Below are positions 1 to 15,166 of a stretch of DNA of 24,000 bases, one piece after another. Location of the stretch: assembly GCA_963677205.1 (NCBI GenBank), contig OY781917.1; one strand, given 5' to 3'. The stretch comes from an uncultured Aliarcobacter sp. (GTDB lineage: Bacteria > Campylobacterota > Campylobacteria > Campylobacterales > Arcobacteraceae). Below the pieces are notes generated by a model that was not told the origin of the DNA, did not search any database, and saw only the letters and a list, made by a program, of their open reading frames with translations. The first letter of the stretch is position 1, and each line of letters opens with the position of its first letter. Position numbers and translations under genes: made by a program.

Positions 1-1855
1 TAATTTCCATACCTTCACTTAATTTTGCTTGGTCTAATAAAATCCAAGAAACATCTTCGATTGTTGATTCATCAGGGCAACCGTTTAGTTTTTTTACGAT
101 TTCATGCTCTGGGTTGATTTCTAAGATTGGAGCTGATTCTGGCATAGCCTGTCCCATTTGTCTGAACATATGAGCCATTGCTGCCATTTGTGCATCTGCT
201 GCATCTTTTACAACGCAAGATGGTGATTCAGAAAGTCTATTTGTAACTTTTACATCTTTAACTGCATCACCTAATTTATCTTTAATTTTCTTAGTTATTG
301 ATTCAAATTTTGTTTCAACTTCTTTTTTCTCTTCTTCACTTTGCTCAACTTTTGGAGGTTCACAAGCTGTGATGTCTTTGAATTCCCACTCTTTATATGC
401 ACCAATTGCAGGAGTGATAATTTCATCGATTTCTTTATCATCTAAGATTAAAACTTCAATGTTATTTTTATTATAAGACTCTAATAATGGAGAACTTCTT
501 AATATTTTTTCATTATCACCAACGATATAGAAAATTGCTTTTTGTTCACTATCAGCTCTTTCTTTATATGCTTCTAATGAAGTCATTTTTCCAGCTTCAG
601 TTTTTGATGATTTATATCTTAATAACTCTAAAATAGCCTCTTTATTTGTATAATCTTGATATACACCCTCTTTTAAAGGTCTGATATATTGAGCTACAAA
701 CTCAGCATATTTTTCTTCATCTTTAGATAATTTTTTGATTTCAGCAAGGATTTTTTTCACGCTTCCTTGTTTGATGTTTGCTAAGATTCTATTTTCTTGT
801 AAAATTTCTCTTGAAACATTTAAAGGTAAATCTTCAGAATCAATAATTCCTCTTACAAATCTTAAGTAAGTTGGTAATAACTCTTTTTCATCATCTGTGA
901 TAAATACTCTTTTAACATACAGTTTAACACCACTCTGGAAATCTGCTCTATACATATCCATAGGTGCAGTTTTTGGGATGTAGAAAAGTGTTGTATATTC
1001 GTTTACACCCTCTGTTTTAGTGTGAATCGTAAGCATTGGCTCTGATGAGTCATGAGAAATTGATTTATAAAATTGATTATAATCTTCTTCTTTTAATTTT
1101 GCTTTTGGTTGCATCCATAAAGCTGTTGCTTCATTGATTTTTTCGTGTTTTCTCTCTAGAGTTTTTGCTGGTTCTTTTCCTGCTTTTTTATCTTCTTCAC
1201 TTAAAGTTTCTGTTACTTCTTCACTGTAATTTAAGAAAATTGGATATGCAATATGGTTTGAATATTTTCCAACGATATTTTTGATTCTATGTTTAGATGC
1301 GAACTCACTTGCTTCTTCATCTTTTAATTTGATATAAATAACAGTTCCATTTGATTCTTTAATTGCAGTTGTTAAATCAAACTCACCTGTTCCATCACTT
1401 GTCCATTTATAAGCAGTTTCTTCACCAGCTTTTTTAGTGATAACATCTACTTTGTTTGCTACCATAAATACTGAATAAAAACCAACCCCAAATTGACCGA
1501 TTAAGTTTGAATCTTTTTTTGCATCACCAGTTAAATTTTCAACAAATGATTTTGTACCTGATTTTGCAATTGTTCCAATTGAAGCTATTAAATCAGCTTC
1601 ATTCATACCAATACCATTATCTGAAATAGTTAAAGATTTATCAGCTTCGTCAAAAGAAACGTTAATTTCACCTTTCCAATCTGCAAATTTGTCTTTTAGA
1701 TTTTCATCTGTTAATCTTAAATAGTTTAATTTATCGATTGCATCACTTGAATTTGATACAAGTTCTCTTATAAAAATCTCTTTATTTGAGTATAAAGAGT
1801 GTGTCATTAAATGTAATAATTGTCCTACTTCTGTCTGAAATTGATGTTTTGCCAT
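1..1855 (-). CDS. htpG: Molecular chaperone HtpG (Hsp90 family); 3' end runs off the left window edge
   Basis: Absent from the ORF track because there is no stop inside the window. Hand translation of the reverse strand from ATG 1855-1853 gives MAKHQFQTEVGQLLHLMTHSLYSNKEIFIRELVSNSSD, the GHKL ATPase N-terminus of HtpG. An internal NLIGQFGVGFYS motif lies around 1470-1505, and the frame stays open to the edge, ending ...DQAKLSEGMEI. AGGAGA RBS at 1867-1862. Confidence 0.95.
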   Translation of the reverse strand, partial: MAKHQFQTEVGQLLHLMTHSLYSNKEIFIRELVSNSSDAIDKLNYLRLTDENLKDKFADWKGEINVSFDEADKSLTISDNGIGMNEADLIASIGTIAKSGTKSFVENLTGDAKKDSNLIGQFGVGFYSVFMVANKVDVITKKAGEETAYKWTSDGTGEFDLTTAIKESNGTVIYIKLKDEEASEFASKHRIKNIVGKYSNHIAYPIFLNYSEEVTETLSEEDKKAGKEPAKTLERKHEKINEATALWMQPKAKLKEEDYNQFYKSISHDSSEPMLTIHTKTEGVNEYTTLFYIPKTAPMDMYRADFQSGVKLYVKRVFITDDEKELLPTYLRFVRGIIDSEDLPLNVSREILQENRILANIKQGSVKKILAEIKKLSKDEEKYAEFVAQYIRPLKEGVYQDYTNKEAILELLRYKSSKTEAGKMTSLEAYKERADSEQKAIFYIVGDNEKILRSSPLLESYNKNNIEVLILDDKEIDEIITPAIGAYKEWEFKDITACEPPKVEQSEEEKKEVETKFESITKKIKDKLGDAVKDVKVTNRLSESPSCVVKDAADAQMAAMAHMFRQMGQAMPESAPILEINPEHEIVKKLNGCPDESTIEDVSWILLDQAKLSEGMEI

Positions 1856-1937
1856 GTCATTTCTCCTATAATTTATTTAATTTTAGAAGAGAATTTTATC
1901 GCAACTTTATAAAAGTAAGCTAAAGTTTTTATTAAAA

Positions 1938-1964
1938 CTAGCACTTTTTTGCATTGAGTGCTAA
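1938..1964. promoter_or_regulatory. CIRCE-like inverted repeat (candidate HrcA operator) in the htpG / 2025-ORF divergent region
   Basis: CTAGCACTT-N9-GAGTGCTAA compared with the CIRCE consensus TTAGCACTC-N9-GAGTGCTAA. The right half is 9/9, the left half 7/9, and the spacer is exactly 9 nt. It lies 83 nt upstream of the htpG ATG and 61 nt upstream of the 2025 ATG. Confidence 0.6.
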
Positions 1965-2024
1965 TTTAACTAAAAAAAAGTTCAAAAAAGATAAACTCTG
2001 CTTTTAAAATTAAGGATTAAAAAA

Positions 2025-3908
2025 ATGACAAAAGAGAATTTTTTAAACGACTTACAAAAAATATATGACTTCTTAAATGATGAAAAAACGCAAACTAATA
2101 AATTAATAGCTTTTCTTGAAAATGAAGAGTTTGATAAACTAGGACTCATAGATGATTTTGCGAAATCTCTAAACCTTGAAATGAGTAGTGATTTAAGATT
2201 TGCACTTGTTACAAGACTTGTGAATTTAAGGGATGATTCTTTAGTTCAAGTTCTAAAAAAACTTGAAAAAACTGAGCTTGAAATTATTGAACTTCAAGAA
2301 AAAGCCTATGATTTTGTAAAAGAGTATTGGCATGAAAAACATACAAAATTAATAGATTTAATAGTACAAAACAATCTTTTAACTCCTTTTTATCAAGAAA
2401 TTTTTATAGGTGTTTATAATGTTGGTCTTCAAATGACAGCATGGCAAACTTCTTGGACAGCACACATTATAAATGGTATTAATAAAGATTTAATGGCTAA
2501 GTTTGATGGAAAAGAAGAGAAAGTTATGAAATATTTAGAAGATGAAAAACTTCTAGATCTTGGACATAATGCTCAAATAGCTGATAGATGTTACTCTGCG
2601 CTAGTAAAAGATGGAAATAAATATACTTCAAAAGCATATATCAAAGCTTTCAAAAAAGAGACAACTGAAGTTGTTGATGCACTGGAAGAGTTTGCTGATA
2701 AACTAATCGAACTTGAAGATGAAATCTATAACCAAAAATGGGATTATGTTTTATATATTCAAGCTCTTATCAAAGCATTTAGTGAAGATAGAACTAATGA
2801 ATTAGTTTCAAAATGGGCAGATGTAGATAGAGCTTGGATGAAAATAAAAACTCCAATTCAAATTGGACATCCACTAGAATATTATGAAGACCACTTTAGA
2901 AAAGCCGTTGCACTTGAATGGGATATTAGACTTACAAATCCAAAATTTGCGCAAAATGACCATAGGGTAAATAAAATCAAATCGGCATTTGCCAAAATCT
3001 TTAATAGTTTTGAAGCAAATGAAACATACAAAAAGACTTATGATTTCTCTTTAAAATCACTAGATAAAGTGCAACTTTATGTTGGACGACCAGCGCTATT
3101 TTTTGGAGCTGAGTTTAATGGAATGTTTTCAGCTCAAGTTGTTCCAAATGATGAAATCGTATCTTTAGAAGAAGGTAAAAAAATCTTTGCATTTTCAGAT
3201 GAGATTTTACAAACAAGCCGAGCAAAACCATTTTTAAAATTAAGTCGAGAGATTTTTGGGCAAGAGTTACTTACACGTGATAGAACTTTCCTTTTTAATG
3301 AAACAGCTTCTTGGCATCAAGTTTATGATATTAGCACTATTGGACATGAATATGGACATATTTTATGGTGTGATGATGAAACAGAATCAGTAATGAATAA
3401 AACTGGTAACTTTAAAAATATTGAAGAGTTCAAAGCAACAACAGGTGGATTAATTTCATATTTTTTAGACCAAGATACAGATGAACTTCACTTAAAATCA
3501 CAAGTTTTAATTGACCTTGTAAAAAGAAGTGTTGGATTAATTGGATGGATGGAAGTTGATGAAGTTCAACCATATTACTGTGAGGGATTAATTCATTTAA
3601 ATGGACTATTTGATACAGCTGTTTTAACTTGGGATAATGAAAATAAAAACTTATCAATTGATTTAAGTGATGAAAAATATGAAGCGTTAAAAGCTTGGTA
3701 CATAAAAAATTACACAGCTTTAGCAAAACATTATCTTGATAAAAAAGATGCAACTGCATTTTTAAATAACTATGCTACAAAAACAGAAAAATATTTTATG
3801 CCAAATGATGAAAATATAAACTCATTTGTAAAATATTATTTCAAAAGATACCAAGATGTTGGGCAAGAGTTAGATACAGTTGATAAAAAAAGTAATTATA
3901 TAAAATGA
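2025..3908 (+). CDS. Hypothetical protein with a zinc-metallopeptidase-type HExxH motif (possible gluzincin; family not identified)
   Basis: 627-aa ORF with ATG at 2025 and an AAGGA RBS at 2012-2016. It contains TIGHEYGHILW followed about 22 residues later by NIEEFKATT. The position of HExxH...E at about 70% of the length resembles M3-type peptidases. I cannot assign a family from memory. Confidence 0.7.
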   Translation: MTKENFLNDLQKIYDFLNDEKTQTNKLIAFLENEEFDKLGLIDDFAKSLNLEMSSDLRFALVTRLVNLRDDSLVQVLKKLEKTELEIIELQEKAYDFVKEYWHEKHTKLIDLIVQNNLLTPFYQEIFIGVYNVGLQMTAWQTSWTAHIINGINKDLMAKFDGKEEKVMKYLEDEKLLDLGHNAQIADRCYSALVKDGNKYTSKAYIKAFKKETTEVVDALEEFADKLIELEDEIYNQKWDYVLYIQALIKAFSEDRTNELVSKWADVDRAWMKIKTPIQIGHPLEYYEDHFRKAVALEWDIRLTNPKFAQNDHRVNKIKSAFAKIFNSFEANETYKKTYDFSLKSLDKVQLYVGRPALFFGAEFNGMFSAQVVPNDEIVSLEEGKKIFAFSDEILQTSRAKPFLKLSREIFGQELLTRDRTFLFNETASWHQVYDISTIGHEYGHILWCDDETESVMNKTGNFKNIEEFKATTGGLISYFLDQDTDELHLKSQVLIDLVKRSVGLIGWMEVDEVQPYYCEGLIHLNGLFDTAVLTWDNENKNLSIDLSDEKYEALKAWYIKNYTALAKHYLDKKDATAFLNNYATKTEKYFMPNDENINSFVKYYFKRYQDVGQELDTVDKKSNYIK

Positions 3909-4144
3909 GTAAATGTGCATCTTTAATAAACCCAAAAGTTTGTCCTTTTTGTAAAAAAGAGAACTTATGTGAAGCGCATATTCCTAATAATAATTGTTGG
4001 TGTAATCATGTTGCAGTTCCAAAAGATTTAAGGGCTTTAATTCCACAAGAGCTACAAATGAAAGCTTGTATTTGTCAAAATTGTGTTTTGGCTTTTAAAG
4101 AAGATAAAGAAAAATTTATCACAGAATTAAATATATTAAAATAA
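3905..4144 (+). CDS. Cysteine-rich CWC-type small protein
   Basis: 79 aa with the pattern CPFC...C...CWC...CIC..C, which matches the Cys_rich_CWC family pattern as I remember it. Its start overlaps the upstream stop (ATGA at 3905-3908), implying translational coupling. Confidence 0.7.
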   Translation: MSKCASLINPKVCPFCKKENLCEAHIPNNNCWCNHVAVPKDLRALIPQELQMKACICQNCVLAFKEDKEKFITELNILK

Positions 4145-4159
4145 GAGATTTTCTCTTAT
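4141..4159. terminator. Short hairpin between convergent genes (possible bidirectional terminator)
   Basis: ATAAGAGA (4141-4148), TTT loop, TCTCTTAT (4152-4159). The 8-bp stem sits between the stop at 4142-4144 (+) and the stop at 4161-4163 (-), in T-rich flanks. Confidence 0.4.
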
Positions 4160-4160
4160 T

Positions 4161-4865
4161 TTATGTAGAAATAACCTCATTTAATTCCACACAATAAGCA
4201 CTAAGTTTTCCATATCCCTCTTTTGCATAACAACATCCAGTATCAACATCTATAAAGTGTTTTGTTAAATCAACCTCTTTTTGGATTGTATGTCCAAAAA
4301 TATTAAAAATTGGAACATCCTCTTTTGGCTCTTTTCTATTCCATAAAGCATACTCTTCAAAAACATCTTCTTTTTCATCTTTTAGATGCCAAACATTTGC
4401 CATTGAAGCGTGGGATACAACTATTGGTTTATCATTTTTAGAAGCTTTTAATTCTAAATACAAAGGTAAAGTTTCAAGCCATAAAATATCATCTAAAAGT
4501 TTTTGGAATTTTTCTTTATCTTCAAAGCAAACTAACTTTCCATCACTTTTATCCACATAAATAACTTCATAAGATAAAAGAGTTTGTTTTCCACCGTTGT
4601 TTATCCATCTATGATAATAAACCATTGAGGGAAGATTTGGGTAAGTTTGTTTAAATTCTGTAACATACTCTATCATCATTTTTTCATGATTTCCAAGAAC
4701 ACATAAGTGATTATTACTTTTTACAAAATCTATAACTTCCTTTGATTTTCTTCCCCTATCAACTAAATCTCCAACAAAAATAAGTTTTGAATCCTTTGGA
4801 AGTTTATCTACTAAAATTCGTAAACTATCAAACTCTCCATGAACATCACCTATTATATAAGTCAT
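4161..4865 (-). CDS. PPP-family metallophosphoesterase (Ser/Thr phosphatase or ApaH/PrpE-like)
   Basis: Carries the signature motifs GDVHG, GDLVDRG and GNHE, plus later VSHA and GHT. ATG at 4865-4863 is preceded by AAGGA. It lies 11 nt downstream of the preceding gene. Confidence 0.88.
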   Translation of the reverse strand: MTYIIGDVHGEFDSLRILVDKLPKDSKLIFVGDLVDRGRKSKEVIDFVKSNNHLCVLGNHEKMMIEYVTEFKQTYPNLPSMVYYHRWINNGGKQTLLSYEVIYVDKSDGKLVCFEDKEKFQKLLDDILWLETLPLYLELKASKNDKPIVVSHASMANVWHLKDEKEDVFEEYALWNRKEPKEDVPIFNIFGHTIQKEVDLTKHFIDVDTGCCYAKEGYGKLSAYCVELNEVIST

Positions 4866-4876
4866 TTAACAAATCC

Positions 4877-6166
4877 TTATTTTAACTTTGTATAAATATC
4901 TTCAACAAGATAAATATCTTTTAATAAAGTTAACAGTCCAGCTTTTATTTTTTCTGCATCTTGTTTTTGGAAAGTTCCTAGGTTTACTTTTTTGCCATCT
5001 TTTTGATTTACTATTAGCTCATTATTTACTATCTCAATATTTTCTATATTTTGATACCAAAAAACAGTTACCTCATCATTTTTTAGATTTACAAATCTAG
5101 CATGGGAATATTTTATATTTACATCAGGTTGTAAATCCCAAAAGTTAAAACTATAAACCACACCTTTTTCATACTCTTGTAAAATTTGATTTACAACCTC
5201 TTTTTCTTTGTAAACTTGAATATATGTCATAAAAGCAAATCTATATGCTTCTATATTTAAATCTTTAGTTTTTGAAGAATCTCTTTTATCAAGTTCATTA
5301 AATATGTCTATCACATAATTTAAATTTTGTGTAAAAGCATCTAATGAATATAAACTTTTTAGAGTATCAAATAACTCAATTTCACTTGTGTTTTCTAAAT
5401 CTTTGTTTAATAAAGATTTATATTTTTCCTCTTTTTCTTTTGCTTTTTTTTCATTTATATATTTTTCATATTCATCTTTATAAAACTCAATATCTTGGCT
5501 TAACCAATAGATATTATTTATACTATTTGAGAACCATAAAGGTTTTAAAATAAAATCATAAATTGTTAGTTCTTTATAAAGAGTTGGTGAGATATTATTT
5601 AATATATCCAAGAAGTTTTCATTATCTTTTAACTCATCAAAAATATCAGAAATAAAGAAATTTGAATAAAGAGTAACTATGTGTTTATTACTATCTTTTT
5701 GTTCAACTAAAAAGTATTTACCCTCTTTTTCATATAAAGAGTAAAATTGCTCATAAATTTGAAACTCTTTTATTAGTTTTTCATTTTGTAGATTTAAAGC
5801 TATTGCTTTTTTTGTATCAAATCGATATTTAAAACTATCATCAAATAATCCTAGTTTAAAAGAGATAAAATTTATTGCATTATTTAAAATCATTAAAGAA
5901 AAAATAACTAAAAGAAATTTCTTTGCATAATCCAAATATATTCTTCTATTTAACTCTTTTTGTTTTTTTAAAAGCTCTTTTTCTTCATCACTTACATCTG
6001 CTTTTTTATTAGGAAAAATGTAGAACCAAGAAAAACTAATGGTCATAAAAACTACCAGAAAAAAAAGAAAACCTTGCAAAGAGATAGGATTTAACTCTAA
6101 ACTTCTTTGCAAAATCGTCGCAACTCCACCTGAAACTAAAATTCTTAGAAAATTATTGTTTAACAT
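4877..6166 (-). CDS. Hypothetical membrane protein (three N-terminal hydrophobic helices, then a large Lys/Glu/Asn-rich soluble region)
   Basis: 429-aa ORF with ATG 6166-6164 and an AAGGA RBS, 9 nt downstream of the LetB-like gene. I recognise no domain. Confidence 0.75.
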   Translation of the reverse strand: MLNNNFLRILVSGGVATILQRSLELNPISLQGFLFFLVVFMTISFSWFYIFPNKKADVSDEEKELLKKQKELNRRIYLDYAKKFLLVIFSLMILNNAINFISFKLGLFDDSFKYRFDTKKAIALNLQNEKLIKEFQIYEQFYSLYEKEGKYFLVEQKDSNKHIVTLYSNFFISDIFDELKDNENFLDILNNISPTLYKELTIYDFILKPLWFSNSINNIYWLSQDIEFYKDEYEKYINEKKAKEKEEKYKSLLNKDLENTSEIELFDTLKSLYSLDAFTQNLNYVIDIFNELDKRDSSKTKDLNIEAYRFAFMTYIQVYKEKEVVNQILQEYEKGVVYSFNFWDLQPDVNIKYSHARFVNLKNDEVTVFWYQNIENIEIVNNELIVNQKDGKKVNLGTFQKQDAEKIKAGLLTLLKDIYLVEDIYTKLK

Positions 6167-6175
6167 ATCTTTTCC

Positions 6176-8827
6176 TTATTTTATACTAGGACTTATACTC
6201 TTCCAATCATCTCTTAATGTTTTTACTAAAGTAAATTTATCCTTTGGATTTGCAATCTCTCCATATTCATAAGGAGTAACAACTACTAATCCACCTTTTA
6301 ATAGACTTGTAAAAGTGTTTGATTCAACTTTTGAACCAGAGAAAATAGAGAATTTCATTTCAAATCCACTTATGTCATAAAACTCTGAATTTTTTCTAAT
6401 TAATTTTCTATATTTATCATAAATCAAACAATCAACAACAACTTTTGAGCCATCTTCACTTAAATCAATTTTACTTACTTTTCCTATTTGTACATTTTTA
6501 TAATAAACAGGTGAATCCACATTTACACTTGAAGCTGTTGGATCTTCTACTTTAAATACTGTTCCAAAATGTGAGCTTTCAACTGAGGGTTGATTTTCTG
6601 AACCTTCAAATCTTGTTTGAGGCATTGGGTTATCACTTTTAATAACTCCAATATTTACAGCCATTACAGTTGAACCAGCATTTGCTATTTCTTGAAGTGA
6701 AATTCTAGGTTTTTTTAGATAAAACAAAGTTCCCTCTTTAGCAATTGAAGCAAAATCACTATAAATTAAAGCTTTTACTTCAACTTGTTGTTTCTCATTT
6801 AATCTAACCTTTGTTACTTTCCCAATATTTACACCTTTGTAAGTAATTTGAGAGAAGTTTTCTTGTAAACCTTCCACATCATTAAAAACAATTGTAATGC
6901 TATTTGTTGAGTTTTTCATCTCATCTTCAGAAGCAAAGATTTTAGGTTTATCATACTCTATATTTGAATCTGTATCAAGTATTATTGAACCATTTAAAAG
7001 AGAAGAGAAGTTATCAACTTCAAATAAAACTCCACTAAGACTAGCTTTTAAATTTACAACACCTTTTTTATAGAATCTACTTTTATTTGTGATATATTTT
7101 TTAAAATCACTATAAATAAATAAAGATATTTTTGATTTTTTATCATCAAATTTTATATCTTTTACAAAACCTATCTCTTGATTTTTATACATTATTGCCA
7201 TATCAGGTTTTATTTCAAAGTCATTATTAAATTCAGCTTCTATTGTAAAACCATTGTTTGAAGCTCTTTTTAGTTTTTCTACATCTTTAAATGAACTATA
7301 AAGTTTAAACTCTTTATCTGAAAGTTTTGCACCCTCTTTTTTCTCAGCAATAAGTGCAATTGCACCATTTAACAGTGGCTCAACTCCTGAATAATTAATA
7401 TTTAGATTTAGATTTTTCATCTCTATTAGTTTTGAACTCATATCATAATAAAGGTTATTGTCATTTATTAAATCTTTATATTTTTCATCTATTAAAAGAG
7501 ATATTTTTACATTTTTTAAATCAGGAGTTAAAGCATAACTATCAACTTTTCCTATCTCAATATTTTTAAAATAAACCTTTGATTTTGTACTAATTGAGTT
7601 TAAATTTTCACTTAGAAGGTCTATTTTTATACTCAAATTACTTTTATTAATATCTTTTTTATTTATTGCAATAAAATCAGTTTTGAAATCACCTTTTTTA
7701 TACTCTAAAGATACAAAATTTCCTTTTACAATATTTCCTAGATTTTTAACTCCATCAAATGAAATAACTGGCTCTTCAACAAAAAACTTAGTCTTATTTG
7801 TTAATAAATATTTGTACTCTTCATACATAAATGCTTTTGTATTTAAACCATCTTTATTTAGTTTTACTTCTGTGATTTTTCCTATTTCGATACCTTTATA
7901 AATAATAGGAGTATTCTCTTCTATTCCATTTACATCATTAAAGTTTATAGTAAAGAACTCTTTATTTTTTAAATCATCTTTTTTTCCATATAAAATATAT
8001 GGCTCATCTTTTATGATTTTTTCATCCTCTTTATTTGGAGTAATAACTGTAATTCCCCCAACAATTGCAGAATATAAAGAACCTAACTCAATATTTAATC
8101 CACTTGCTCCATAAGTAACTTTTAAAGCTTCATTCATAAAAAATTTAGAACTTTTATTTACTAAATAGTTAAATTTATCATAAATATAGGCTGTAAAATA
8201 AACTTTTTCATATACAAACTCTTTTGCAATAACCTCACCAATTTGGAAGTTATTATAAAAAATAGGAGTTCCTATTTCCACATTATCTTTGTCATTTGCA
8301 ATTAAAGAGACATAATATCCATCATTTTCAAACTCATCATTTGGTTGTGTATCTAAACCACTAAAATAATCTTTATATTTTCCAGTGTTATACTCTTCTT
8401 GTGTTTTAAATTTTGGTGATAATTCAATTTTATATCCACTAATTAGAGTATTTAATCCTGAAATTTTTGTTAATGAAACTGTTGGTTTTTTTATCCAAAA
8501 TTGAGAACTTTCACTTGCTACATATTTTGCAACTTCATTATCCACTAAAATATTCACTTTTACACTTTTTAAATCTTCATGGATAGAGATTTTTGTAACT
8601 TTTCCAAGTTGTAAACCTTTGTATTCCAAAGGTGTAACGCCCTCTTTTAATCCTTCGGCACTTTTAAATACAACTGTAATATTTGTACCTTTTTTCATAT
8701 AAGATTCATAAGCAATCCAACCTAAAATTCCTAATATTATTAAAGGTAAAACCCAAATAAATGAAATTGATTTTTTATCTTCTATTTTAGGTTCATAAAC
8801 TTCTTGTTCTATTAATTCTTTACTCAT
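6176..8827 (-). CDS. Seven-MCE-domain intermembrane lipid-transport protein (LetB/YebT-like, PqiB family)
   Basis: N-terminal TM helix (ISFIWVLPLIILGILGWIAY). The MCE core motif recurs seven times at spacings of about 105-130 aa: LEYKGLQLGKV, IFYNNFQIGEV, IIYKGIEIGKI, VYFKNIEIGKV, IMYKNQEIGFV, ITYKGVNIGKV, VYYKNVQIGKV. The ORF-track start at 8848 is a TTG. I prefer ATG 8827-8825, which has an AAGGA RBS 9 nt upstream and makes an ATGAGTAA overlap with the upstream stop. Confidence 0.9.
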   Translation of the reverse strand: MSKELIEQEVYEPKIEDKKSISFIWVLPLIILGILGWIAYESYMKKGTNITVVFKSAEGLKEGVTPLEYKGLQLGKVTKISIHEDLKSVKVNILVDNEVAKYVASESSQFWIKKPTVSLTKISGLNTLISGYKIELSPKFKTQEEYNTGKYKDYFSGLDTQPNDEFENDGYYVSLIANDKDNVEIGTPIFYNNFQIGEVIAKEFVYEKVYFTAYIYDKFNYLVNKSSKFFMNEALKVTYGASGLNIELGSLYSAIVGGITVITPNKEDEKIIKDEPYILYGKKDDLKNKEFFTINFNDVNGIEENTPIIYKGIEIGKITEVKLNKDGLNTKAFMYEEYKYLLTNKTKFFVEEPVISFDGVKNLGNIVKGNFVSLEYKKGDFKTDFIAINKKDINKSNLSIKIDLLSENLNSISTKSKVYFKNIEIGKVDSYALTPDLKNVKISLLIDEKYKDLINDNNLYYDMSSKLIEMKNLNLNINYSGVEPLLNGAIALIAEKKEGAKLSDKEFKLYSSFKDVEKLKRASNNGFTIEAEFNNDFEIKPDMAIMYKNQEIGFVKDIKFDDKKSKISLFIYSDFKKYITNKSRFYKKGVVNLKASLSGVLFEVDNFSSLLNGSIILDTDSNIEYDKPKIFASEDEMKNSTNSITIVFNDVEGLQENFSQITYKGVNIGKVTKVRLNEKQQVEVKALIYSDFASIAKEGTLFYLKKPRISLQEIANAGSTVMAVNIGVIKSDNPMPQTRFEGSENQPSVESSHFGTVFKVEDPTASSVNVDSPVYYKNVQIGKVSKIDLSEDGSKVVVDCLIYDKYRKLIRKNSEFYDISGFEMKFSIFSGSKVESNTFTSLLKGGLVVVTPYEYGEIANPKDKFTLVKTLRDDWKSISPSIK

Positions 8828-9401
8828 CCCAAATAATCCTTGTATCAAATCTATTTGCTGCTATCATTGTTAATATTACCATTAAAGCAAAAGAGGTTGC
8901 AGCAATTCCCCCTTTTATATTAAAAATCTCATCAAGTTGAACTATTGAAGCCAAAAGTGCAACCACATAAATATCAATCATCGACCATTTTCCAATAGCT
9001 TCAATGAACTTAAATATTAATATTTTTCTATTATTATGCATTTTTACATTTACTTTTAAAGAAATAAAAATAAAAAGTAAACCAACCAACTTTATCATTG
9101 GAATTATCACACTTGCTGTAAATACTACAATTGCAATAAAATAACTTCCTTGTCCTAAAAAACTAATAACACCTTCTAAAATAGTACTTTCAATTTTTAC
9201 CCCAAGTCTTGTAACTTCCATTATTGGATAAATCATAGCTGGAATATAAAGTAAAATTGCACAAATAGTAAGAGCTAGTGAAACTTGTAAAGAGTCTTTT
9301 ATTCTTTTTCTCACAAGATGATTACATCTTGTACATACAAAATTATCAAAGTTTTCTCTTTCATACATTTTGTGGCAGTTTTTACAAGATATTAAAACCA
9401 T
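8820..9401 (-). CDS. PqiA/LetA-like integral membrane protein, C-terminal-half equivalent
   Basis: 193 aa with an N-terminal zinc-ribbon-like CKNC...CTRC followed by about four hydrophobic helices. This is the layout of one repeat of the two-repeat E. coli PqiA/LetA. Confidence 0.85.
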   Translation of the reverse strand: MVLISCKNCHKMYERENFDNFVCTRCNHLVRKRIKDSLQVSLALTICAILLYIPAMIYPIMEVTRLGVKIESTILEGVISFLGQGSYFIAIVVFTASVIIPMIKLVGLLFIFISLKVNVKMHNNRKILIFKFIEAIGKWSMIDIYVVALLASIVQLDEIFNIKGGIAATSFALMVILTMIAANRFDTRIIWDE

Positions 9402-10001
9402 TTATTCCTCATCAAATACACTTTTACCCACAAATTTTCTGTTTGACATATAAAAACAAAAGATATAAGCCAACATAACATAAAAACCAATATCAAATTT
9501 TGTTGAACTAACCATTCCAATTAGTTTTATATATGTAACAATCACACTTATAATAAATACTTCAATAAATCCCCAATGTCTAAAAAAATGAAAACTATCA
9601 TGAAGTAAAGTATCTGTAAAAAGTCTTATATTAGTTTTATCTTGAATAAAAGCAAATATTATTACTAAAGAGTTCAAAACAGGAGCTAGGATAATCGTAA
9701 AAAAAACTATGAGTGCCACAAAAAAGAAATTTTCTTCAAATAAAATTAAAACTGTACCAATTAAAGTAGCTCTTAATTCATTCTCATTTATATTTAGTGA
9801 AATGATTGGATAAATATTTAAAAGTCCAAATAACAAAAGTGCAGAAATAGAATAATATAAAGAGTCATTGCTGTGTTTTTTTTCAGCTTCAATTTTACTA
9901 TTACATCTAGGACATCTTTGAGTAGCAGTTATTTCTTGTTGTTTTTTTATAAATAAACCACAATTATAACACTCTACAATATCATCAATATTTTTGTCCA
10001 T
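9402..10001 (-). CDS. PqiA/LetA-like integral membrane protein, N-terminal-half equivalent
   Basis: 199 aa with CYNC...CPRC followed by about four hydrophobic helices. Its TAA stop (9404-9402) is immediately followed, in the same frame, by the ATG of the next PqiA-like ORF. Confidence 0.85.
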   Translation of the reverse strand: MDKNIDDIVECYNCGLFIKKQQEITATQRCPRCNSKIEAEKKHSNDSLYYSISALLLFGLLNIYPIISLNINENELRATLIGTVLILFEENFFFVALIVFFTIILAPVLNSLVIIFAFIQDKTNIRLFTDTLLHDSFHFFRHWGFIEVFIISVIVTYIKLIGMVSSTKFDIGFYVMLAYIFCFYMSNRKFVGKSVFDEE

Positions 10002-10080
10002 AAAATTCTACCCTTTTAGTTTTGGCATTCTAACATAGTAAACTTTTTTTCATTCTAAAAACTCTTTAAAATTAAATATA

Positions 10081-10093
10081 TTGTATTATACAA
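10081..10093. promoter_or_regulatory. 13-bp perfect palindrome in the pqiA-like / globin divergent intergenic region (candidate operator overlapping a -10-like TATTAT)
   Basis: TTGTAT-T-ATACAA, read directly. It lies 45 nt upstream of the globin ATG (10138) and is followed by a tandem ATGCAAT-T-ATGCAAT at 10094-10108. Confidence 0.25.
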
Positions 10094-10137
10094 ATGCAAT
10101 TATGCAATAAACTACTATTTTTTAAAGGTTAATAAAA

Positions 10138-10569
10138 ATGCAATTTACTATAACTCAAGCACAAATAGGTGAAAGACCTCCTGTTGTAAAACCAGTACCT
10201 GAAGTTTTAAAATTTTTAGGTGAAGAAAAAATGAGAAAACTAATCTCTGACCACTATGATTTATTAAGAGTTAGTAATATCAAAGGACTATTTCCTCCAA
10301 CTGACGAAGGTTTTGAAATGGCAAAAAAACACTCTGCAGATTTCTTCATTCAAATTTGCGGAGGACCTGATTATTTTAATCAAAGTAGAGGTGCTCCAAT
10401 GATGGCTGGACGACATGCAGCTTTTAAAATTACTCCAGAAGCTAGATTAATTTGGTTAGAATCTTATACTAAAGTTCTAGAACCAATTGAGATGCCTGAT
10501 GATTTAAAACAATCATTTTGGAACTATTTAGATATCTTTTCAATTTGGATGGTAAACAGTCCTGAATAA
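10138..10569 (+). CDS. Truncated haemoglobin (2-on-2 globin, group II / GlbO-like)
   Basis: 143 aa. The segment FFIQICGGPDYFNQSRGAPMMAGRHAAFKITPEARLIWLESY...MVNSPE aligns closely with the remembered M. tuberculosis GlbO segment [38 protein letters not shown]...LVNSPF, including the proximal His. Confidence 0.85.
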   Translation: MQFTITQAQIGERPPVVKPVPEVLKFLGEEKMRKLISDHYDLLRVSNIKGLFPPTDEGFEMAKKHSADFFIQICGGPDYFNQSRGAPMMAGRHAAFKITPEARLIWLESYTKVLEPIEMPDDLKQSFWNYLDIFSIWMVNSPE

Positions 10570-10579
10570 GTTTTAAATA

Positions 10580-10619
10580 TTCTTACAAAATATCAATAAA
10601 AAGTATTTTGTAAGAAATT
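10580..10619 (+). terminator. Hairpin terminator after the globin gene
   Basis: TTCTTACAAAATA (10580-10592), 11-nt loop, TATTTTGTAAGAA (10604-10616). The 13-bp stem is perfect and is followed by A/T-rich sequence. Confidence 0.5.
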
Positions 10620-10631
10620 TAAAATATTTAT

Positions 10632-10652
10632 TTTTGTCAGTTTTTGACAAAA
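10632..10652. promoter_or_regulatory. Inverted repeat upstream of the ATPase cassette (candidate operator)
   Basis: TTTTGTCA (10632-10639), 5-nt spacer, TGACAAAA (10645-10652). A TTGACA hexamer follows at 10696-10701, and TATACT at 10717-10722 (15-nt spacer, suboptimal). Confidence 0.3.
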
Positions 10653-10755
10653 TTCTACTTTATTTACTAATATTTACCGTAATTTAAACTTTTTTTTGAC
10701 AATATTTAACATATATTATACTAAACTACACTTTTAAAATATAAAAGGATTATAA

Positions 10756-11883
10756 ATGTTATTAGAATTTGGAGCATACAATTTTGCTTCTTTTAAAGAA
10801 GGTTTTGAAATTAACTTAAGAGAAAAAAAGAATAGTCTTGAAGCTTATACTTTAATGGGAATAAAGGGTGCAAATGCATCTGGAAAAACAAATGTACTAA
10901 AAGTTCCTGCTTTTCTATCAGATTTTTGCACAAATTCTTTTAATTCAGAAGTTGATGAAGATATTATTTTCTCTTCATTTTTTAATAATAATAGAGAAAC
11001 AAGTATTTATGCAATTTTTTCAGAAAATGGCATTGAATACAAATATGAAATTGATTTAACAAGAGCTAAAGTTATAAAAGAGTCTATTTATAGAAAAGAT
11101 AAATTAATTATTGAAAGAATTGATGATAAACTAACAGAAAATACAATTGAAGAATTTAAAGATTTGAAAACAATGATTTTGAGAGATAATGTTTCTCTAA
11201 TAAGTACAGCAAAACAATATGGTACAAAATCAATAGAAACAATTTATCATTTATTCTTTAAAATAAATGGAAATGTTCATGCATATGGACTTGCTGATAA
11301 ATTTCTAAATCATGAAAGTATTTCAAAGTCTTATTTTAAAGATAAAAAATTACTTGATTTTTTGAAAGAAATTCTTATAAAAACAGATACAGGTATTTCA
11401 GATATTGAAATACATGAAAAGATAAATCCAGAAACAAAGAAAGTTACTTATTACCCAATTTTCGTATATAAAGTTGATGAAGAAATAAATTATCTTACAT
11501 ACTATAACCAATCAAGTGGAACAAAAACTTTATATACACATCTTTTTCTATATAAAAGAATATTACAAATAGGTGGAATATTATTATTAGATGAATTAGA
11601 TATAAATCTTCACCCTGATTTAATCCCAATACTATTAAACCTTTTTGAATCAAAAAAATTAAATCCAGAAAATGCACAGTTAATATTTACTACTCATAAC
11701 AATGAAATAATGGATAGATTAAAAAAATCTAGAATTGTACTTGTAAATAAAGAAGATAACGAAAGTTATCTATATAAACTAGATGAAACTGGTGAAATTT
11801 TAAGAAATGATAGGTCCATTAGTAAAGTATATAATTCTGGAAAATTAGGTGGTAAACCTAAGATTGAGTTAGATTATGAGTAA
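10756..11883 (+). CDS. ABC/SMC-like AAA_21-type ATPase (stand-alone ATPase core with no fused nuclease domain)
   Basis: 375 aa with Walker A GANASGKT (aa 38-45), a signature-like SSGTK (aa 253-257), Walker B ILLLDE (aa 275-280) and an H-loop TTHN (aa 312-315). AAGGA RBS 7 nt before ATG 10756. Confidence 0.9.
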   Translation: MLLEFGAYNFASFKEGFEINLREKKNSLEAYTLMGIKGANASGKTNVLKVPAFLSDFCTNSFNSEVDEDIIFSSFFNNNRETSIYAIFSENGIEYKYEIDLTRAKVIKESIYRKDKLIIERIDDKLTENTIEEFKDLKTMILRDNVSLISTAKQYGTKSIETIYHLFFKINGNVHAYGLADKFLNHESISKSYFKDKKLLDFLKEILIKTDTGISDIEIHEKINPETKKVTYYPIFVYKVDEEINYLTYYNQSSGTKTLYTHLFLYKRILQIGGILLLDELDINLHPDLIPILLNLFESKKLNPENAQLIFTTHNNEIMDRLKKSRIVLVNKEDNESYLYKLDETGEILRNDRSISKVYNSGKLGGKPKIELDYE

Positions 11884-12367
11884 ATATAGTAAAAATAATA
11901 AAAGAGATAAAAATCTTTCACTAATATTACAAACAACTAGTTTAGATAATAAGACTGATATATTAACTAAAAGATGTAAATTTAACTTTCATTATTTTAA
12001 TAAAAACTGTGCAGGGCAAGATTTCAAAGAATGGAGTAATGAGAAGTTAATAACATTATTAGAAAAATTAATACTTTTTAGTGAAAATTCATTAACTTAT
12101 TGGGAAAATCAAAAACCAACACTTGTGATATATGATAATTTTCCTATTCCGGCAAAAACAGATTTTAAAGAACCTAGAAATGTTCCACTTGAAGCAAGAT
12201 GGGCAAGATTTAGACTCGGAGCTAAAATTAGATTAGTAGGATTTATTATTCCTGAAACATATCATGATAGAGAACATGAAACTACTAAAATGAGATGGGA
12301 TATAAATACTTTTTACATAGTATTTTTAGATGAAAACCATAGATTTTGGCATGATGAAGATGAATAA
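11876..12367 (+). CDS. Uncharacterised 163-aa partner protein of the ATPase (possible RelE/ParE-like C-terminal fold; inference)
   Basis: Its ATG at 11876 overlaps the ATPase stop (ATGAGTAA, 8-nt overlap). I see no RloB/TOPRIM or HNH motif. The C-terminal WARFRLGAKIRLVGFI...FYIVFLDENHRFW resembles the strand-strand-basic/His pattern of RelE/HigB-type toxins. Confidence 0.8.
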   Translation: MSKYSKNNKRDKNLSLILQTTSLDNKTDILTKRCKFNFHYFNKNCAGQDFKEWSNEKLITLLEKLILFSENSLTYWENQKPTLVIYDNFPIPAKTDFKEPRNVPLEARWARFRLGAKIRLVGFIIPETYHDREHETTKMRWDINTFYIVFLDENHRFWHDEDE

Positions 12368-12371
12368 TTAA

Positions 12372-12400
12372 AAAAGCATAGATTCAACTATGCTTTTCTT
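12372..12400 (+). terminator. Rho-independent terminator after the two-gene cassette
   Basis: AAAAGCATAG (12372-12381), 6-nt loop, CTATGCTTTT (12388-12397), then CTTT. It begins 5 nt after the stop at 12365-12367. Confidence 0.7.
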
Positions 12401-12610
12401 TCCATAAATTCAATATTTATAATAATTGTTATCTAACTCATCAAAATTAATAAAAATGGGATAAACTCCCATTCTTTATTAATTAATAATTATTGTTTCC
12501 TCAGTCTTTCAAGCTTTTTTGTAAATTAATAACATTTCTCTACAATTTATATACATAATCAAACTTTTTTTCGCTAATATACAAACATTCACTTTTTTAG
12601 GATTCATAAT

Positions 12611-15166
12611 ATGAAAAAGACTTTCAAAAACTATATCTATTCTAGACAAATAGTATTAGTTACGTTAATTTTCTTAATCTGCTTTATTTTTAGTACTTAT
12701 CTACATACAACCCTCACAAAACAGGAAGCTTTAAAACATTCAGATGCAATATCAAAGCAAGTTTTTTCTTCAATGTATCAAGTAATGAGAAAAGGTTGGA
12801 GCAAAGATGATGTAAAACTATTTACTAAATCTTTAGAAAAAAACTTTGAAAGTAGTAATTATGAAATTAATATTTACCGAGGAGATAAAGTAAGACAACT
12901 TTTTGGTGATATTGATGAAAAAGCAAAAGATTCAACTCTTGTTGATATTTTAAATGGGAAAATTGATAAACACGATGATTTTCAAAATAATATTGTAAGA
13001 AATATTATGCCTCTAAAAGCTACAAATGATTGTAAAGCTTGTCACGTAAATGTTCAAGTTGGTGAAGTTCTTGGAGCATTAGAAGTAAAACAAGATTTAA
13101 ATTCAATTTTTACAGAATCTAAATATCAATATATTGCATTTTTCCTAATTATTGTTCCTATATTTTACATTTTGGCATTTTTATCAACAAGATACACTAC
13201 AAAACAAATACTTGATAGTCTATCTCTTTTTAATGATAAAGTAAGAAATATAAACTCTGTACAAGATTTTAAAGCCTTTGACTCAAAAAATATTGATTTA
13301 TATTTCAAAGAGTTTAATGAAATAGTTCAAAATGTGGATTTAATGGCTGAAAAATTAAAAATTGTAGCTGTTGATAAAGAGTTATTAGAGTTTGAAATTA
13401 GACTTTTGGATAAATTTATTATTACTTCTGATGTGGTAAAAGATTGGCGAGAGTATATTTGTGATTTATTAATAGAAATAAATAAAATCATGGAAACTTA
13501 TACTTTAATGACAATTTTTAGAGTTGGTGAAGACCAATTTGAAGTTGATATTTTCTGGTTAGGAATGCCAAAAGAGCATCAAAAAGAGGTTTTTGATGCT
13601 TATATAAACAAAACAATAAAAGAGTCAGAATATTTCAAAGAGATGACTGATTTTACAATAAAACACGTAGTAGCAGATAGAAACAATTGCTTAAATGACT
13701 TAATTGAAGAAGAGATAGAATATAGAACTAAATCTTTATTTTTAGATACTCCAAAAATTGGAGGAATTGTAGGAATTGGTTTACAATCTGTTTTTGCAAG
13801 TGATCCAGTAAGATATATTGTAATTGACTCAATTTTAACAACTATGGCAAATCTTGTAGGTTCAGTAAAAGCCATTCATAAATATACTCAAGATTTAGAA
13901 TATTACGCTGCTCGTGACCCATTAACTGATTTATTTAATCAAAGAGTATTTAATGACATGATGGCTTATGAAATAAAAAGAGCTGCGAAACATGAATACC
14001 CATTTGCTTTAATGGTTATTGATTGTGATAACTTCAAACCTATTAATGATAACTTTGGTCATGCATTTGGGGATAAATTCTTACAAACAGTTGCAAATAT
14101 TCTTGAAGAAGAAAAAAGAGATGAGGATATTGTTGCAAGATATGGTGGAGATGAATTTACAATTATTCTTCCTGAATGTGATGAAAATGGAGCGTTAACA
14201 GTTGCTAATAGAATCTCAAAAAGAATTGAGAGTGAAAAACTTATAGCTCCAGATGGTTCAAGGGTGGGTATTACTATTTCTGTAGGAATTTGTGTTTATC
14301 CAACTCACACTTTATCGCAAAAAGATATGTTTGTTATTGCAGATTCTATGATGTATCAAGCAAAAGAAGAAGGTAAAAACTCTATCAAAATTCCAAATGA
14401 AAGAGATATTTCAAATATTTTAAAAACAAATCAAGAGAAATCTTCTTTATTAATAAAAGCAATTGAAAATGATGAAATTCATCCATATTTTCAACCAATA
14501 AAACCAGCTAATTCAAAAAATAATTTAGTAATCCACGAACTACTAATGAGAATAAATCAAGATGGAAGAGTTGTTTCAGCTTTTGAATTTATTGAAATTG
14601 CAGAAGCAAGAGGACTTATTAATACTATGGATTTAATGGTTATAGAAAAAGCCTTTAAAGAGATTCAACGAACACAATATGAGGGGATTTTATTTATTAA
14701 CTTGTCTCCAAAATCACTAATTGTTGGAGATTTTATCAATAAAATAAATAGTTTTGTAAATAAATATAACATTCAAAGGGAAAAAATTGTATTTGAAATA
14801 ACAGAGAGAGAAACAGTTAAAAACTTCTCTTTATTGGAAAAATTTGTACATAATTTAAAATCTGATGGTTATAAATTTGCAATAGATGACTTTGGTTCTG
14901 GATTCTCTTCGTTTCACTATATTAAAAAATTCCCAATTGATTATGTAAAAATCGATGGTGATTTTATTATAAATATTAATAAAGACGAAAAAGATAGAGC
15001 TTTTGTAAATAGTATTGTAACTTTAGCAAAAGAGTTAAAAATACATACTATTGCAGAGTTTGTAGAAAATCAAGAGATAGTTGAGATTTTAGATGAGTTA
15101 GAAATCGATTATTATCAGGGTTATCACATTGGAAAACCAAGTGACAAGTTTATCTCTTTTGAATAA
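12611..15166 (+). CDS. Membrane-bound GGDEF-EAL (c-di-GMP turnover) protein with a periplasmic CxxCH haem-c-type sensor loop
   Basis: 851 aa with TM helices at about aa 13-33 and 173-196. The loop of about 140 aa between them contains CKACH. The GGDEF domain has an intact RYGGDEF and an RxxD I-site (RDED) five residues upstream. The EAL domain has ELLMR, EITE, DDFGSGFSS, KIDG, EFVE and QGYHIGKP. Confidence 0.92.
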   Translation: MKKTFKNYIYSRQIVLVTLIFLICFIFSTYLHTTLTKQEALKHSDAISKQVFSSMYQVMRKGWSKDDVKLFTKSLEKNFESSNYEINIYRGDKVRQLFGDIDEKAKDSTLVDILNGKIDKHDDFQNNIVRNIMPLKATNDCKACHVNVQVGEVLGALEVKQDLNSIFTESKYQYIAFFLIIVPIFYILAFLSTRYTTKQILDSLSLFNDKVRNINSVQDFKAFDSKNIDLYFKEFNEIVQNVDLMAEKLKIVAVDKELLEFEIRLLDKFIITSDVVKDWREYICDLLIEINKIMETYTLMTIFRVGEDQFEVDIFWLGMPKEHQKEVFDAYINKTIKESEYFKEMTDFTIKHVVADRNNCLNDLIEEEIEYRTKSLFLDTPKIGGIVGIGLQSVFASDPVRYIVIDSILTTMANLVGSVKAIHKYTQDLEYYAARDPLTDLFNQRVFNDMMAYEIKRAAKHEYPFALMVIDCDNFKPINDNFGHAFGDKFLQTVANILEEEKRDEDIVARYGGDEFTIILPECDENGALTVANRISKRIESEKLIAPDGSRVGITISVGICVYPTHTLSQKDMFVIADSMMYQAKEEGKNSIKIPNERDISNILKTNQEKSSLLIKAIENDEIHPYFQPIKPANSKNNLVIHELLMRINQDGRVVSAFEFIEIAEARGLINTMDLMVIEKAFKEIQRTQYEGILFINLSPKSLIVGDFINKINSFVNKYNIQREKIVFEITERETVKNFSLLEKFVHNLKSDGYKFAIDDFGSGFSSFHYIKKFPIDYVKIDGDFIININKDEKDRAFVNSIVTLAKELKIHTIAEFVENQEIVEILDELEIDYYQGYHIGKPSDKFISFE

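Follow-up and report, generated by a model that had tools for sequence, protein, structure and literature searches.

An integrated ATPase and small-protein gene pair in an Aliarcobacter-like genome as a probable relative of the toxin-antitoxin module AarT:AAA

What kind of system is encoded by two overlapping genes that sit between a globin gene (Bac_globin) and a gene for a GGDEF-EAL protein in an uncultured Aliarcobacter sp.? The window analyzed here is a stretch of 24,000 nucleotides (nt) from contig OY781917.1 (assembly GCA_963677205.1), and the cassette within it encodes an ABC-type ATPase followed by a protein of 163 amino acids (aa). A first-pass annotation, made from the DNA letters, proposed a candidate novel defense or toxin module with the same two neighbors that we find. 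Taken together, the genomic, structural and literature data make it likely that the pair is a mobile bicistronic toxin-antitoxin or abortive-infection module, in which a toxin with a RelE/ParE (BECR) fold arrests translation and is held in check by the ATPase. The supposed novel architecture becomes a probable orthologue of a published, partly characterized module. The two genes are:

10756 to 11883, + strand: ABC-type (AAA_21) ATPase, 375 aa, from Pfam, PADLOC and conserved motifs; predicted sensor and neutralizer (antitoxin) of the downstream toxin.
11876 to 12367, + strand: 163-aa toxin with a predicted RelE/ParE-like fold, from AlphaFold2 (AF2) and Foldseek, conservation and Panacea-paired relatives; probably of the NetFlax D3 (AarT) family.

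The two open reading frames (ORFs) share the 8-nt overlap ATGAGTAA. Their positions, this overlap and the ATPase motifs all agree with the first-pass annotation. The motifs comprise Walker A GANASGKT (residues 38-45), the signature SSGTK (253-257), Walker B ILLLDE (275-280) and TTHN (312-315), which contains the H-loop His314. Across 70 orthologues of the ATPase, conservation is at least 90% at G38, N40, G43, K44, T45, S253, G255, T256, D279, E280, D282 and H314. By Pfam, the 375-aa protein is a full-length AAA_21 ATPase (1.9e-36). The top PADLOC matches are AbiLi (2.1e-60) and then AriA (5.9e-35), followed by weaker matches to PtuA (1e-12), MADS3, HEC-01A and PDC-M models; the NCBIfam PtuA model scores the protein at 22 bits against a cutoff of 500, and a phmmer search of PDB sequences gave no match. 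By these profile matches the ATPase is of the AbiLi/AriA/PtuA class, as its early assignment to a defense-type class had anticipated. In the same PADLOC run, the 163-aa partner matches no known partner family.

The relationship between the two genes is not peculiar to this genome. A single-sequence search with the 163-aa protein recovers 102 homologue clusters, a profile search recovers 407 representatives at the 50% identity level, and a second profile search recovers 706 clusters at 90% identity. Of the 185,579 species-representative genomes, 242 contain relatives, and their range covers Campylobacterota, Gamma-, Beta- and Deltaproteobacteria, Spirochaetota, Cyanobacteria, Fibrobacterota, Cloacimonadota, Verrucomicrobiota, Clostridia and Gracilibacteria; hosts include Vibrio cholerae, Yersinia enterocolitica, Pectobacterium and the Shewanella plasmid pSBP2_mcr4. 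Every named copy of the family that we saw is annotated 'hypothetical protein'. With lengths of 60-210 aa, family members are never part of a larger fusion protein. An orthologous ATPase gene lies immediately upstream on the same strand in 84 of the 86 loci fetched, and the other two are contigs that end there, so that the arrangement holds in all 84 testable loci. The two genes share a 4-nt ATGA overlap at 40 of 68 ATPase-toxin junctions. The distance matrices of the two proteins are also correlated (Mantel r = 0.62, with a permuted maximum of 0.16). The ATPase and the small protein strictly co-occur and co-evolve, and the co-occurrence on which the earlier proposal of a functional pair depended is borne out. 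Among the 150 nearest neighbor genes, which spread over 153 Pfam families, there is no recurrent third gene.

The likely roles of the two partners can be read from a minority of the family. Searched by tblastn, phage genomes yielded gp24 of Bacteroides phage BI-TP1, which scores 105 bits against the family hidden Markov model (HMM). The gene directly upstream of gp24, overlapping it, encodes a SocA_Panacea protein (PF13274, 3.5e-20). Panacea is a hyperpromiscuous antitoxin domain (PMC10440598). Three further members of the same short-loop clade as gp24 (P0231, P0238 and P0229) also follow Panacea genes, and two members of this clade (P0102 and P0240) follow ABC ATPases. The same toxin family is alternatively paired with an ATPase or with Panacea. 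Because a minority clade follows Panacea antitoxin genes, the small protein is taken as the toxic partner and the ATPase as occupying the antitoxin position; this gene order marks the small protein as the putative toxin of the pair. In the record of the temperate phage BI-TP1 (PQ571265.1, 4433-5363), the Panacea antitoxin gene and the gene for the 145-aa toxin-family member are both entered as 'hypothetical protein', and the antitoxin carries a structure-match note to a DUF4065 protein.

What the toxin might do is suggested by its predicted structure. The 163-aa protein has no match in Pfam (2025), NCBIfam 20 (2026), PADLOC 2.0 or PHROGs, and a search of 45 homologues against Pfam returned only noise, with no clan match. 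Across these four libraries the partner gives no RloB, TOPRIM or HNH match, as the first-pass annotation had maintained. The AF2 model of the window protein (predicted local distance difference test, pLDDT, 88.7; predicted TM-score, pTM, 0.80) has the secondary-structure order helix, β, α, α, β, β, β, β. Proteins of the RelE/ParE superfamily have a compact α/β fold, with a strand at the N-terminus, then two helices and an antiparallel sheet of 3-4 strands; the model resembles this RelE/HigB topology, to which it adds a helix at the N-terminus and two long loops. A Foldseek comparison of this model with the PDB ranks HigB (4mcx_D) first; the matches to small proteins also include YoeB/ParE, another toxin-antitoxin toxin and BrnT, all with E values of at least 0.4. 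A second AF2 model, of the distant and shorter member P0102 (pLDDT 81.8), gives a much cleaner list, in which the first 14 PDB matches all belong to the RelE/ParE superfamily, as do about 30 of the first 36. The best of these are archaeal RelE (1wmi_A, probability 0.77, TM 0.59) and HigB (4w4g, E = 0.18), and the list further contains YoeB, YafQ, HP0892/HP0894, RelK, HigB2, PrpT, ParE and the RelE domain of Cami1. A Foldseek search of BFVD viral structures produced nothing useful, and hhalign found no similarity between the family profile and single RelE, YoeB, YafQ and HigB sequences. These models make a RelE-like fold probable, and they support, at the level of the fold, the earlier guess that the partner is RelE/ParE/HigB-like.

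Consistent with such a fold, the residues Y86, P90, P100, W109, R119, G122, F146, D152, H155 and F157 are 97-99% conserved in 338 members, with D152, H155 and R119 at 97-98%. The C-terminal strand of the family carries the motif FY[IV]VFLDxxHxF[YW]. This motif, together with arginines in the central strands, appears to resemble the active sites of RelE, YoeB and HigB, and D152, H155 and R119 are accordingly candidate catalytic residues for RNase chemistry.

A tested counterpart to this arrangement exists. NetFlax (Ernits et al., PNAS 2023) includes the Acinetobacter guerrae pair AarT(D3):AAA(D29), WP_152878172.1 / WP_152878174.1 (PMC10440598). In the portion of the NetFlax table covered here, the antitoxin gene comes first in this pair (entered as 'AT'; PMC10440598). 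AarT has no HHpred match and an mRNA-interferase-like fold; it is toxic, and its cognate ATPase neutralizes it (PMC10440598). Expression of AarT blocks the incorporation of 35S-methionine, and the incorporation of 3H-uridine goes up (PMC10440598). The part of Dataset S1 covered here also places D29:D3 in Advenella faeciporci (D3 protein WP_189386081.1), and Panacea:D3 in Algibacter wandonensis (Bacteroidota) and Alteripontixanthobacter maritimus (PMC10440598). WP_133965462.1 and WP_115365768.1 are D3 proteins paired with Panacea. NetFlax reached the ATPase zone from Panacea by hopping via shared toxins (PMC10440598). As judged by description and by partners, not by the AarT sequence, it is likely that the window toxin family is NetFlax D3. 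In a profile search seeded with beta- and gammaproteobacterial members, the best 120 of 706 matches include no Acinetobacter or Advenella entries. By analogy with A. guerrae AarT:AAA, the probable orthologue, the window toxin would be toxic, would be neutralized by its ATPase, and would block translation.

If the pair operates in this manner, translation would begin with the ATPase and continue, by coupling, into the toxin. The ATPase would then bind the toxin and keep it inactive, probably in a higher-order oligomeric complex. A precedent is found in PARIS, where AriA sequesters AriB until a phage trigger frees it (PMC11464382; PMC13064643). By analogy, the sensing of an invader (phage-derived) or stress signal by the window ATPase would release the toxin. 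The freed toxin would stop translation, most likely via RNA cleavage, and growth of the infected cell would be arrested. RNase chemistry, trigger sensing by the ATPase and an anti-phage role are what we infer for the window pair; its role in defense is unproven.

The mobility of the cassette is seen in a direct comparison of two strains. The metagenome contig L096 matches positions 8622-10562 of the window at 99.4% identity and positions 12436-12823 at 96.1%, with nothing between, and it encodes exactly the same PqiA protein as the window. The comparison defines two features:

About 10558 to 12435, no strand: inserted segment of about 1.87 kb, an indel polymorphism; no counterpart in the near-identical strain.
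12436 to 12473, + strand: degenerate remains of the old 3' end of the globin gene (12436-12450) and native globin terminator hairpin (12455-12473), from the empty-site alignment; -11.5 kcal/mol, z = -3.8 (z values of hairpins compare fold energy with shuffled sequence); terminator-like.

The segment of about 1.87 kb contains both genes, the two hairpins that bracket them and a palindrome. In the strain with the empty site, the hairpin found at 12455-12473 of the window comes straight after the globin gene, and the globin C-terminus reads NTPQD*. The window has NSPE* there: the insertion altered the final codons of the gene (around 10547-10569), which ends inside the insert. The native globin terminator now lies about 1.9 kb farther downstream, beyond the cassette. 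Because a decayed copy of the old globin 3' end persists at 12436-12450, the polymorphism points to insertion rather than deletion. The existence of a near-identical strain without ~10558-12435 shows the cassette to be a recent indel and not a housekeeping operon universally conserved at this locus, and it bears out the proposal of a self-contained module of two genes that moves horizontally. A search of both ends of the insert for direct repeats or a target-site duplication scored no better than with shuffled sequence. The right flank is less identical to the empty-site strain than the left (96.1% versus 99.4%), which suggests that the cassette may have been imported together with some flanking DNA by homologous recombination.

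Several other accounts of the pair have to be set against this evidence. The ATPase alone might place the cassette among variants of AbiL, PARIS or Septu, with the small protein a TOPRIM/RloB or HNH nuclease that has diverged strongly and acts on DNA or tRNA, since the best PADLOC match of the ATPase is AbiLi (2.1e-60) and AriA, PtuA and HEC-01A follow. The partner argues otherwise. It has no AbiLii, AriB, PtuB, RloB or DUF4435 match at E <= 1; an AbiLii/RloB-type TOPRIM-OLD partner is not found (PADLOC and Pfam, E <= 1), the cassette holds no AriB-like gene for a DUF4435/TOPRIM effector (Pfam, PADLOC), and the 163-aa protein shows neither an HNH motif nor an HNH match that would make it a PtuB. 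A TOPRIM-OLD domain would not fit into its 163 aa, no conserved Cys/His HNH or EGxxE motif is present, and its predicted topology and Foldseek matches are RelE-like, with no TOPRIM or HNH protein in the lists. Because the partner is none of the cognate effectors of AbiL, PARIS or Septu, the pair is assigned to none of them, and a diverged variant is extremely unlikely. A different account makes the small protein non-enzymatic: it would serve the ATPase as an adaptor or specificity subunit, or else inhibit a protein target such as gyrase in the manner of ParE, so that any growth arrest would stem from the ATPase or from target binding. The RelE/ParE fold does include ParE gyrase poisons that are not nucleolytic (PMC10440598), the catalytic residues proposed here are candidates only, and the Pfam label of AAA_21 is itself 'putative AbiEii toxin'. 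We regard this as very unlikely, given that Panacea pairing marks the small protein as the toxic partner, that D152, H155 and R119 are conserved as expected of an active site, and that AarT, the probable orthologue, blocks translation while uridine incorporation rises, unlike gyrase poisoning (PMC10440598).

The remaining alternative concerns the novelty of the toxin. It may form a distinct, undescribed family that is not D3/AarT and yet shares both partner classes, which would make the pair a new type of two-gene defense system. A direct sequence link to AarT did not emerge from the searches; PADLOC 2.0, Pfam 2025 and NCBIfam 2026 contain no model that recognizes the partner; and all named homologues are annotated 'hypothetical protein'. 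Against these points, D3 fits every descriptor that could be compared with the covered part of the NetFlax data (gene order with an AAA ATPase first as antitoxin, no HMM matches, an RNase-like fold, and both D29 and Panacea as partners, including in Bacteroidota), and the NetFlax route from Panacea to the ATPase via shared toxins is the same bridge as that seen in the window family. A distinct family is on this basis unlikely. Improbable, too, is the least conservative version, a true abortive-infection system with an ABC ATPase sensor gating a RelE-fold RNase, unnamed and distinct from AarT/D3. If it were true, an unnamed defense system absent from PADLOC, NCBIfam and Pfam would have relatives in at least 242 species-representative genomes, with an effector interchangeable between two unrelated neutralizers, the ATPase and Panacea.

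The preferred reading, a mobile module with a translation-arresting toxin held by an ATPase, must itself answer to a number of observations that weigh against it. The A. guerrae pair gave no protection against BASEL coliphages in E. coli, and AF2 models of AarT with its ATPase showed no convincing interface (pDockQ 0.24-0.35) (PMC10440598). The D3 identity is circumstantial, and the 'mRNA interferase fold' of AarT could mean a MazF-like rather than a RelE-like fold. For the window family, a search of PDB sequences with the family HMM found nothing, and hhalign of the family profile against a 120-member profile of Proteus vulgaris-type HigB (PF05015) gave a probability of 0.2%, this template profile being of low diversity (effective number of sequences, Neff, 2.5). 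No Foldseek match is individually significant, the E values of the P0102 list running from 0.18 to 3. Because the profile comparisons with HigB and with PDB sequences are negative, it is the predicted fold that places the small protein in the RelE superfamily, and this membership is unproven. Many neighbors of the cassette are housekeeping genes, and enrichment in defense islands is only moderate.

The sequence around the two genes contains several structured or promoter-like elements, all within the insert:

10580 to 10616, + strand: stem-loop at the 5' edge of the insert; the fold of 10572-10623 has -15.6 kcal/mol, z = -6.2; putative substitute terminator of the globin gene.
10632 to 10673, + strand: palindrome and promoter-like site; perfect 8-bp TTTTGTCA/TGACAAAA overlapping TTGACA-18-TAATAT.
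10712 to 10755, + strand: conserved cassette leader; -10-like TATACT at 10717-10722 and AAGGA ribosome-binding site at 10745-10749.
12372 to 12397, + strand: terminator-like stem-loop closing the two-gene operon; -10.7 kcal/mol, z = -5.7.

The hairpins that were originally noted as bracketing the pair are real by their fold energies. By its position, the upstream one now acts as the predicted terminator of the globin gene in place of the displaced native terminator. The inverted repeat at 10632-10652, described as the cassette's own, is present and folds at -6.6 kcal/mol (z = -3.0), more weakly than either bracketing hairpin; its status as a conserved part of the cassette did not stand. A copy of the cassette in A. 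butzleri (GCA_035066705.1), at a different genomic place, is 83% identical in the toxin and 76% in the ATPase, and its homology to the window copy runs from ~45 nt before the ATG to ~6 nt past the stop codon. The upstream hairpin, the palindrome and the downstream hairpin are all absent from this copy. Because the homology spans only ~10712-12373, the hairpins and palindrome are local features and not conserved parts of the module. The palindrome was considered as the cassette's own operator and rejected on account of its absence from the A. butzleri copy; the palindrome and promoter-like site may be a local promoter or operator. The TTGACA-18-TAATAT site is a 10/12 promoter-like match of a kind found 23 times where 22.8 are expected, and is for that reason weak. 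The leader from ~10712 to the ATG is nearly identical in the A. butzleri copy, and its -10 element and ribosome-binding site are read directly from the sequence.

Base composition sets the insert apart to a limited degree. Its G+C content is 23.1%, compared with 27.0 +/- 1.6% in other windows of equal size, none of which is lower. The dip is real but small. The low G+C first noted from hand counts of single lines is upheld in direction; its weight is reduced, as one native gene has 22.6%. This is a 429-aa ORF at 4877-6166 (- strand), with no Pfam match, whose G+C is the lowest of the native genes checked and as low as that of the cassette.

The genomic settings of other family members are varied. 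Amid housekeeping genes, a few kinds of neighbor recur at low frequency: integrases, type I restriction-modification (R-M) S subunits, other AAA_21 proteins, HigB, Fic and Eco57I-type methylases. Read in order, positions 318-8486 of the A. butzleri locus encode an OLD-type AAA_21-DUF4435 protein and AbiTii, then an unknown 436-aa protein and the ATPase-toxin pair; a 120-aa ORF with a HigB toxin comes next, and a tyrosine integrase last. From its gene content, this integrase-bounded region looks like a compact defense island. A Treponema copy adjoins a type I R-M S subunit and a KAP NTPase. The P0102 pair (loci L089-L092), a 447-aa ATPase and a 149-aa toxin, lies beside a 1107-aa MmeI/Eco57I-type methyltransferase and a SNF2/PLD helicase protein, a neighborhood that appears like those of DISARM or BREX. 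On the Shewanella baltica conjugative MOBF plasmid pSBP2_mcr4 (NZ_CP051531.1, 1879-8971), the pair stands between site-specific integrase genes, beside a retron Ec67-type reverse transcriptase/endonuclease.

Elsewhere in the window, a 627-aa protein at 2025-3908 has DUF7897 as its only Pfam match at E <= 1e-5 (803 bits, full length); the label htpG that it first received is not sustained, as no HSP90 or HATPase_c match is listed at that threshold. Positions 6176-10001 (- strand) hold a pqi-like operon in which PqiA is split between separate ORFs of 199 and 193 aa; next comes an 890-aa protein that has five MlaD domains.

The analysis exposes an annotation gap, in that none of Pfam, NCBIfam, PADLOC and PHROGs offers a model for a widespread toxin family. 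The pair joins the biology of type II toxin-antitoxin systems to that of defense systems built from an ATPase and a nuclease (PARIS, AbiL, Septu). A toxin that is guarded either by the small Panacea or by an ABC ATPase offers a clean system for asking what the ATPase adds, such as trigger sensing, and the strains with and without the insert provide a natural comparison.

How, then, does the pair compare with known systems? PARIS (AriA with the TOPRIM tRNase AriB) and AbiL (AbiLi with the TOPRIM protein AbiLii/RloB) share with it the ATPase class and the bicistronic layout. In PARIS, the ATPase doubles as sensor and antitoxin, sequestering an effector that targets RNA (PMC11464382, PMC13064643). 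AriA and AbiLi are both longer than the window ATPase with its 375 aa, which is paired with a 163-aa effector of predicted RelE-like fold, where PARIS and AbiL have a TOPRIM/OLD nuclease. With the type II toxins RelE, HigB and YoeB, the window toxin appears to share the predicted β-α-α-β-β-β-β fold, arginines in the central strands and a C-terminal D..H motif. No similarity to them is detectable by sequence or profile, and the window toxin carries two long insertions and one more helix at its N-terminus. It also differs in its neutralizer, which in most members of the family is an ABC ATPase, whereas type II systems use a small DNA-binding antitoxin. The likeness to PanA-neutralized toxins lies in the minority clade that stands behind Panacea, a classical proteinaceous antitoxin. 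Menshen/ptuXYZ (ParB-DUF262, ABC ATPase and PIN-BECR effector) also couples an ABC ATPase to a BECR/RelE-fold effector in a defense locus; it has three genes and a PIN-BECR fusion, whereas the window family has no conserved third gene, no PIN domain and a single-domain effector.

The closest correspondence is with AarT:AAA. In each, a two-gene operon opens with the ATPase and places a small toxin downstream; both toxins lack an HMM-detectable domain and have a predicted RNase- or interferase-like fold; both families pair alternatively with Panacea antitoxins, including in Bacteroidota; and both are sporadic in Proteobacteria and beyond. The window copy comes from an Aliarcobacter-like genome of 27% G+C, a genus absent from the covered portion of the NetFlax table. 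The early view that an ATPase paired with a RelE-like effector would be an undescribed architecture is wrong, as AarT(D3):AAA(D29) had been published and tested, and Menshen/ptuXYZ is a further case; on the same grounds, the statement that this class of ATPase is always paired or fused with a TOPRIM or HNH nuclease was too strong. The window pair is most likely an uncharacterized Aliarcobacter-like orthologue of a published module, in which an ATPase neutralizes an RNase-like toxin.

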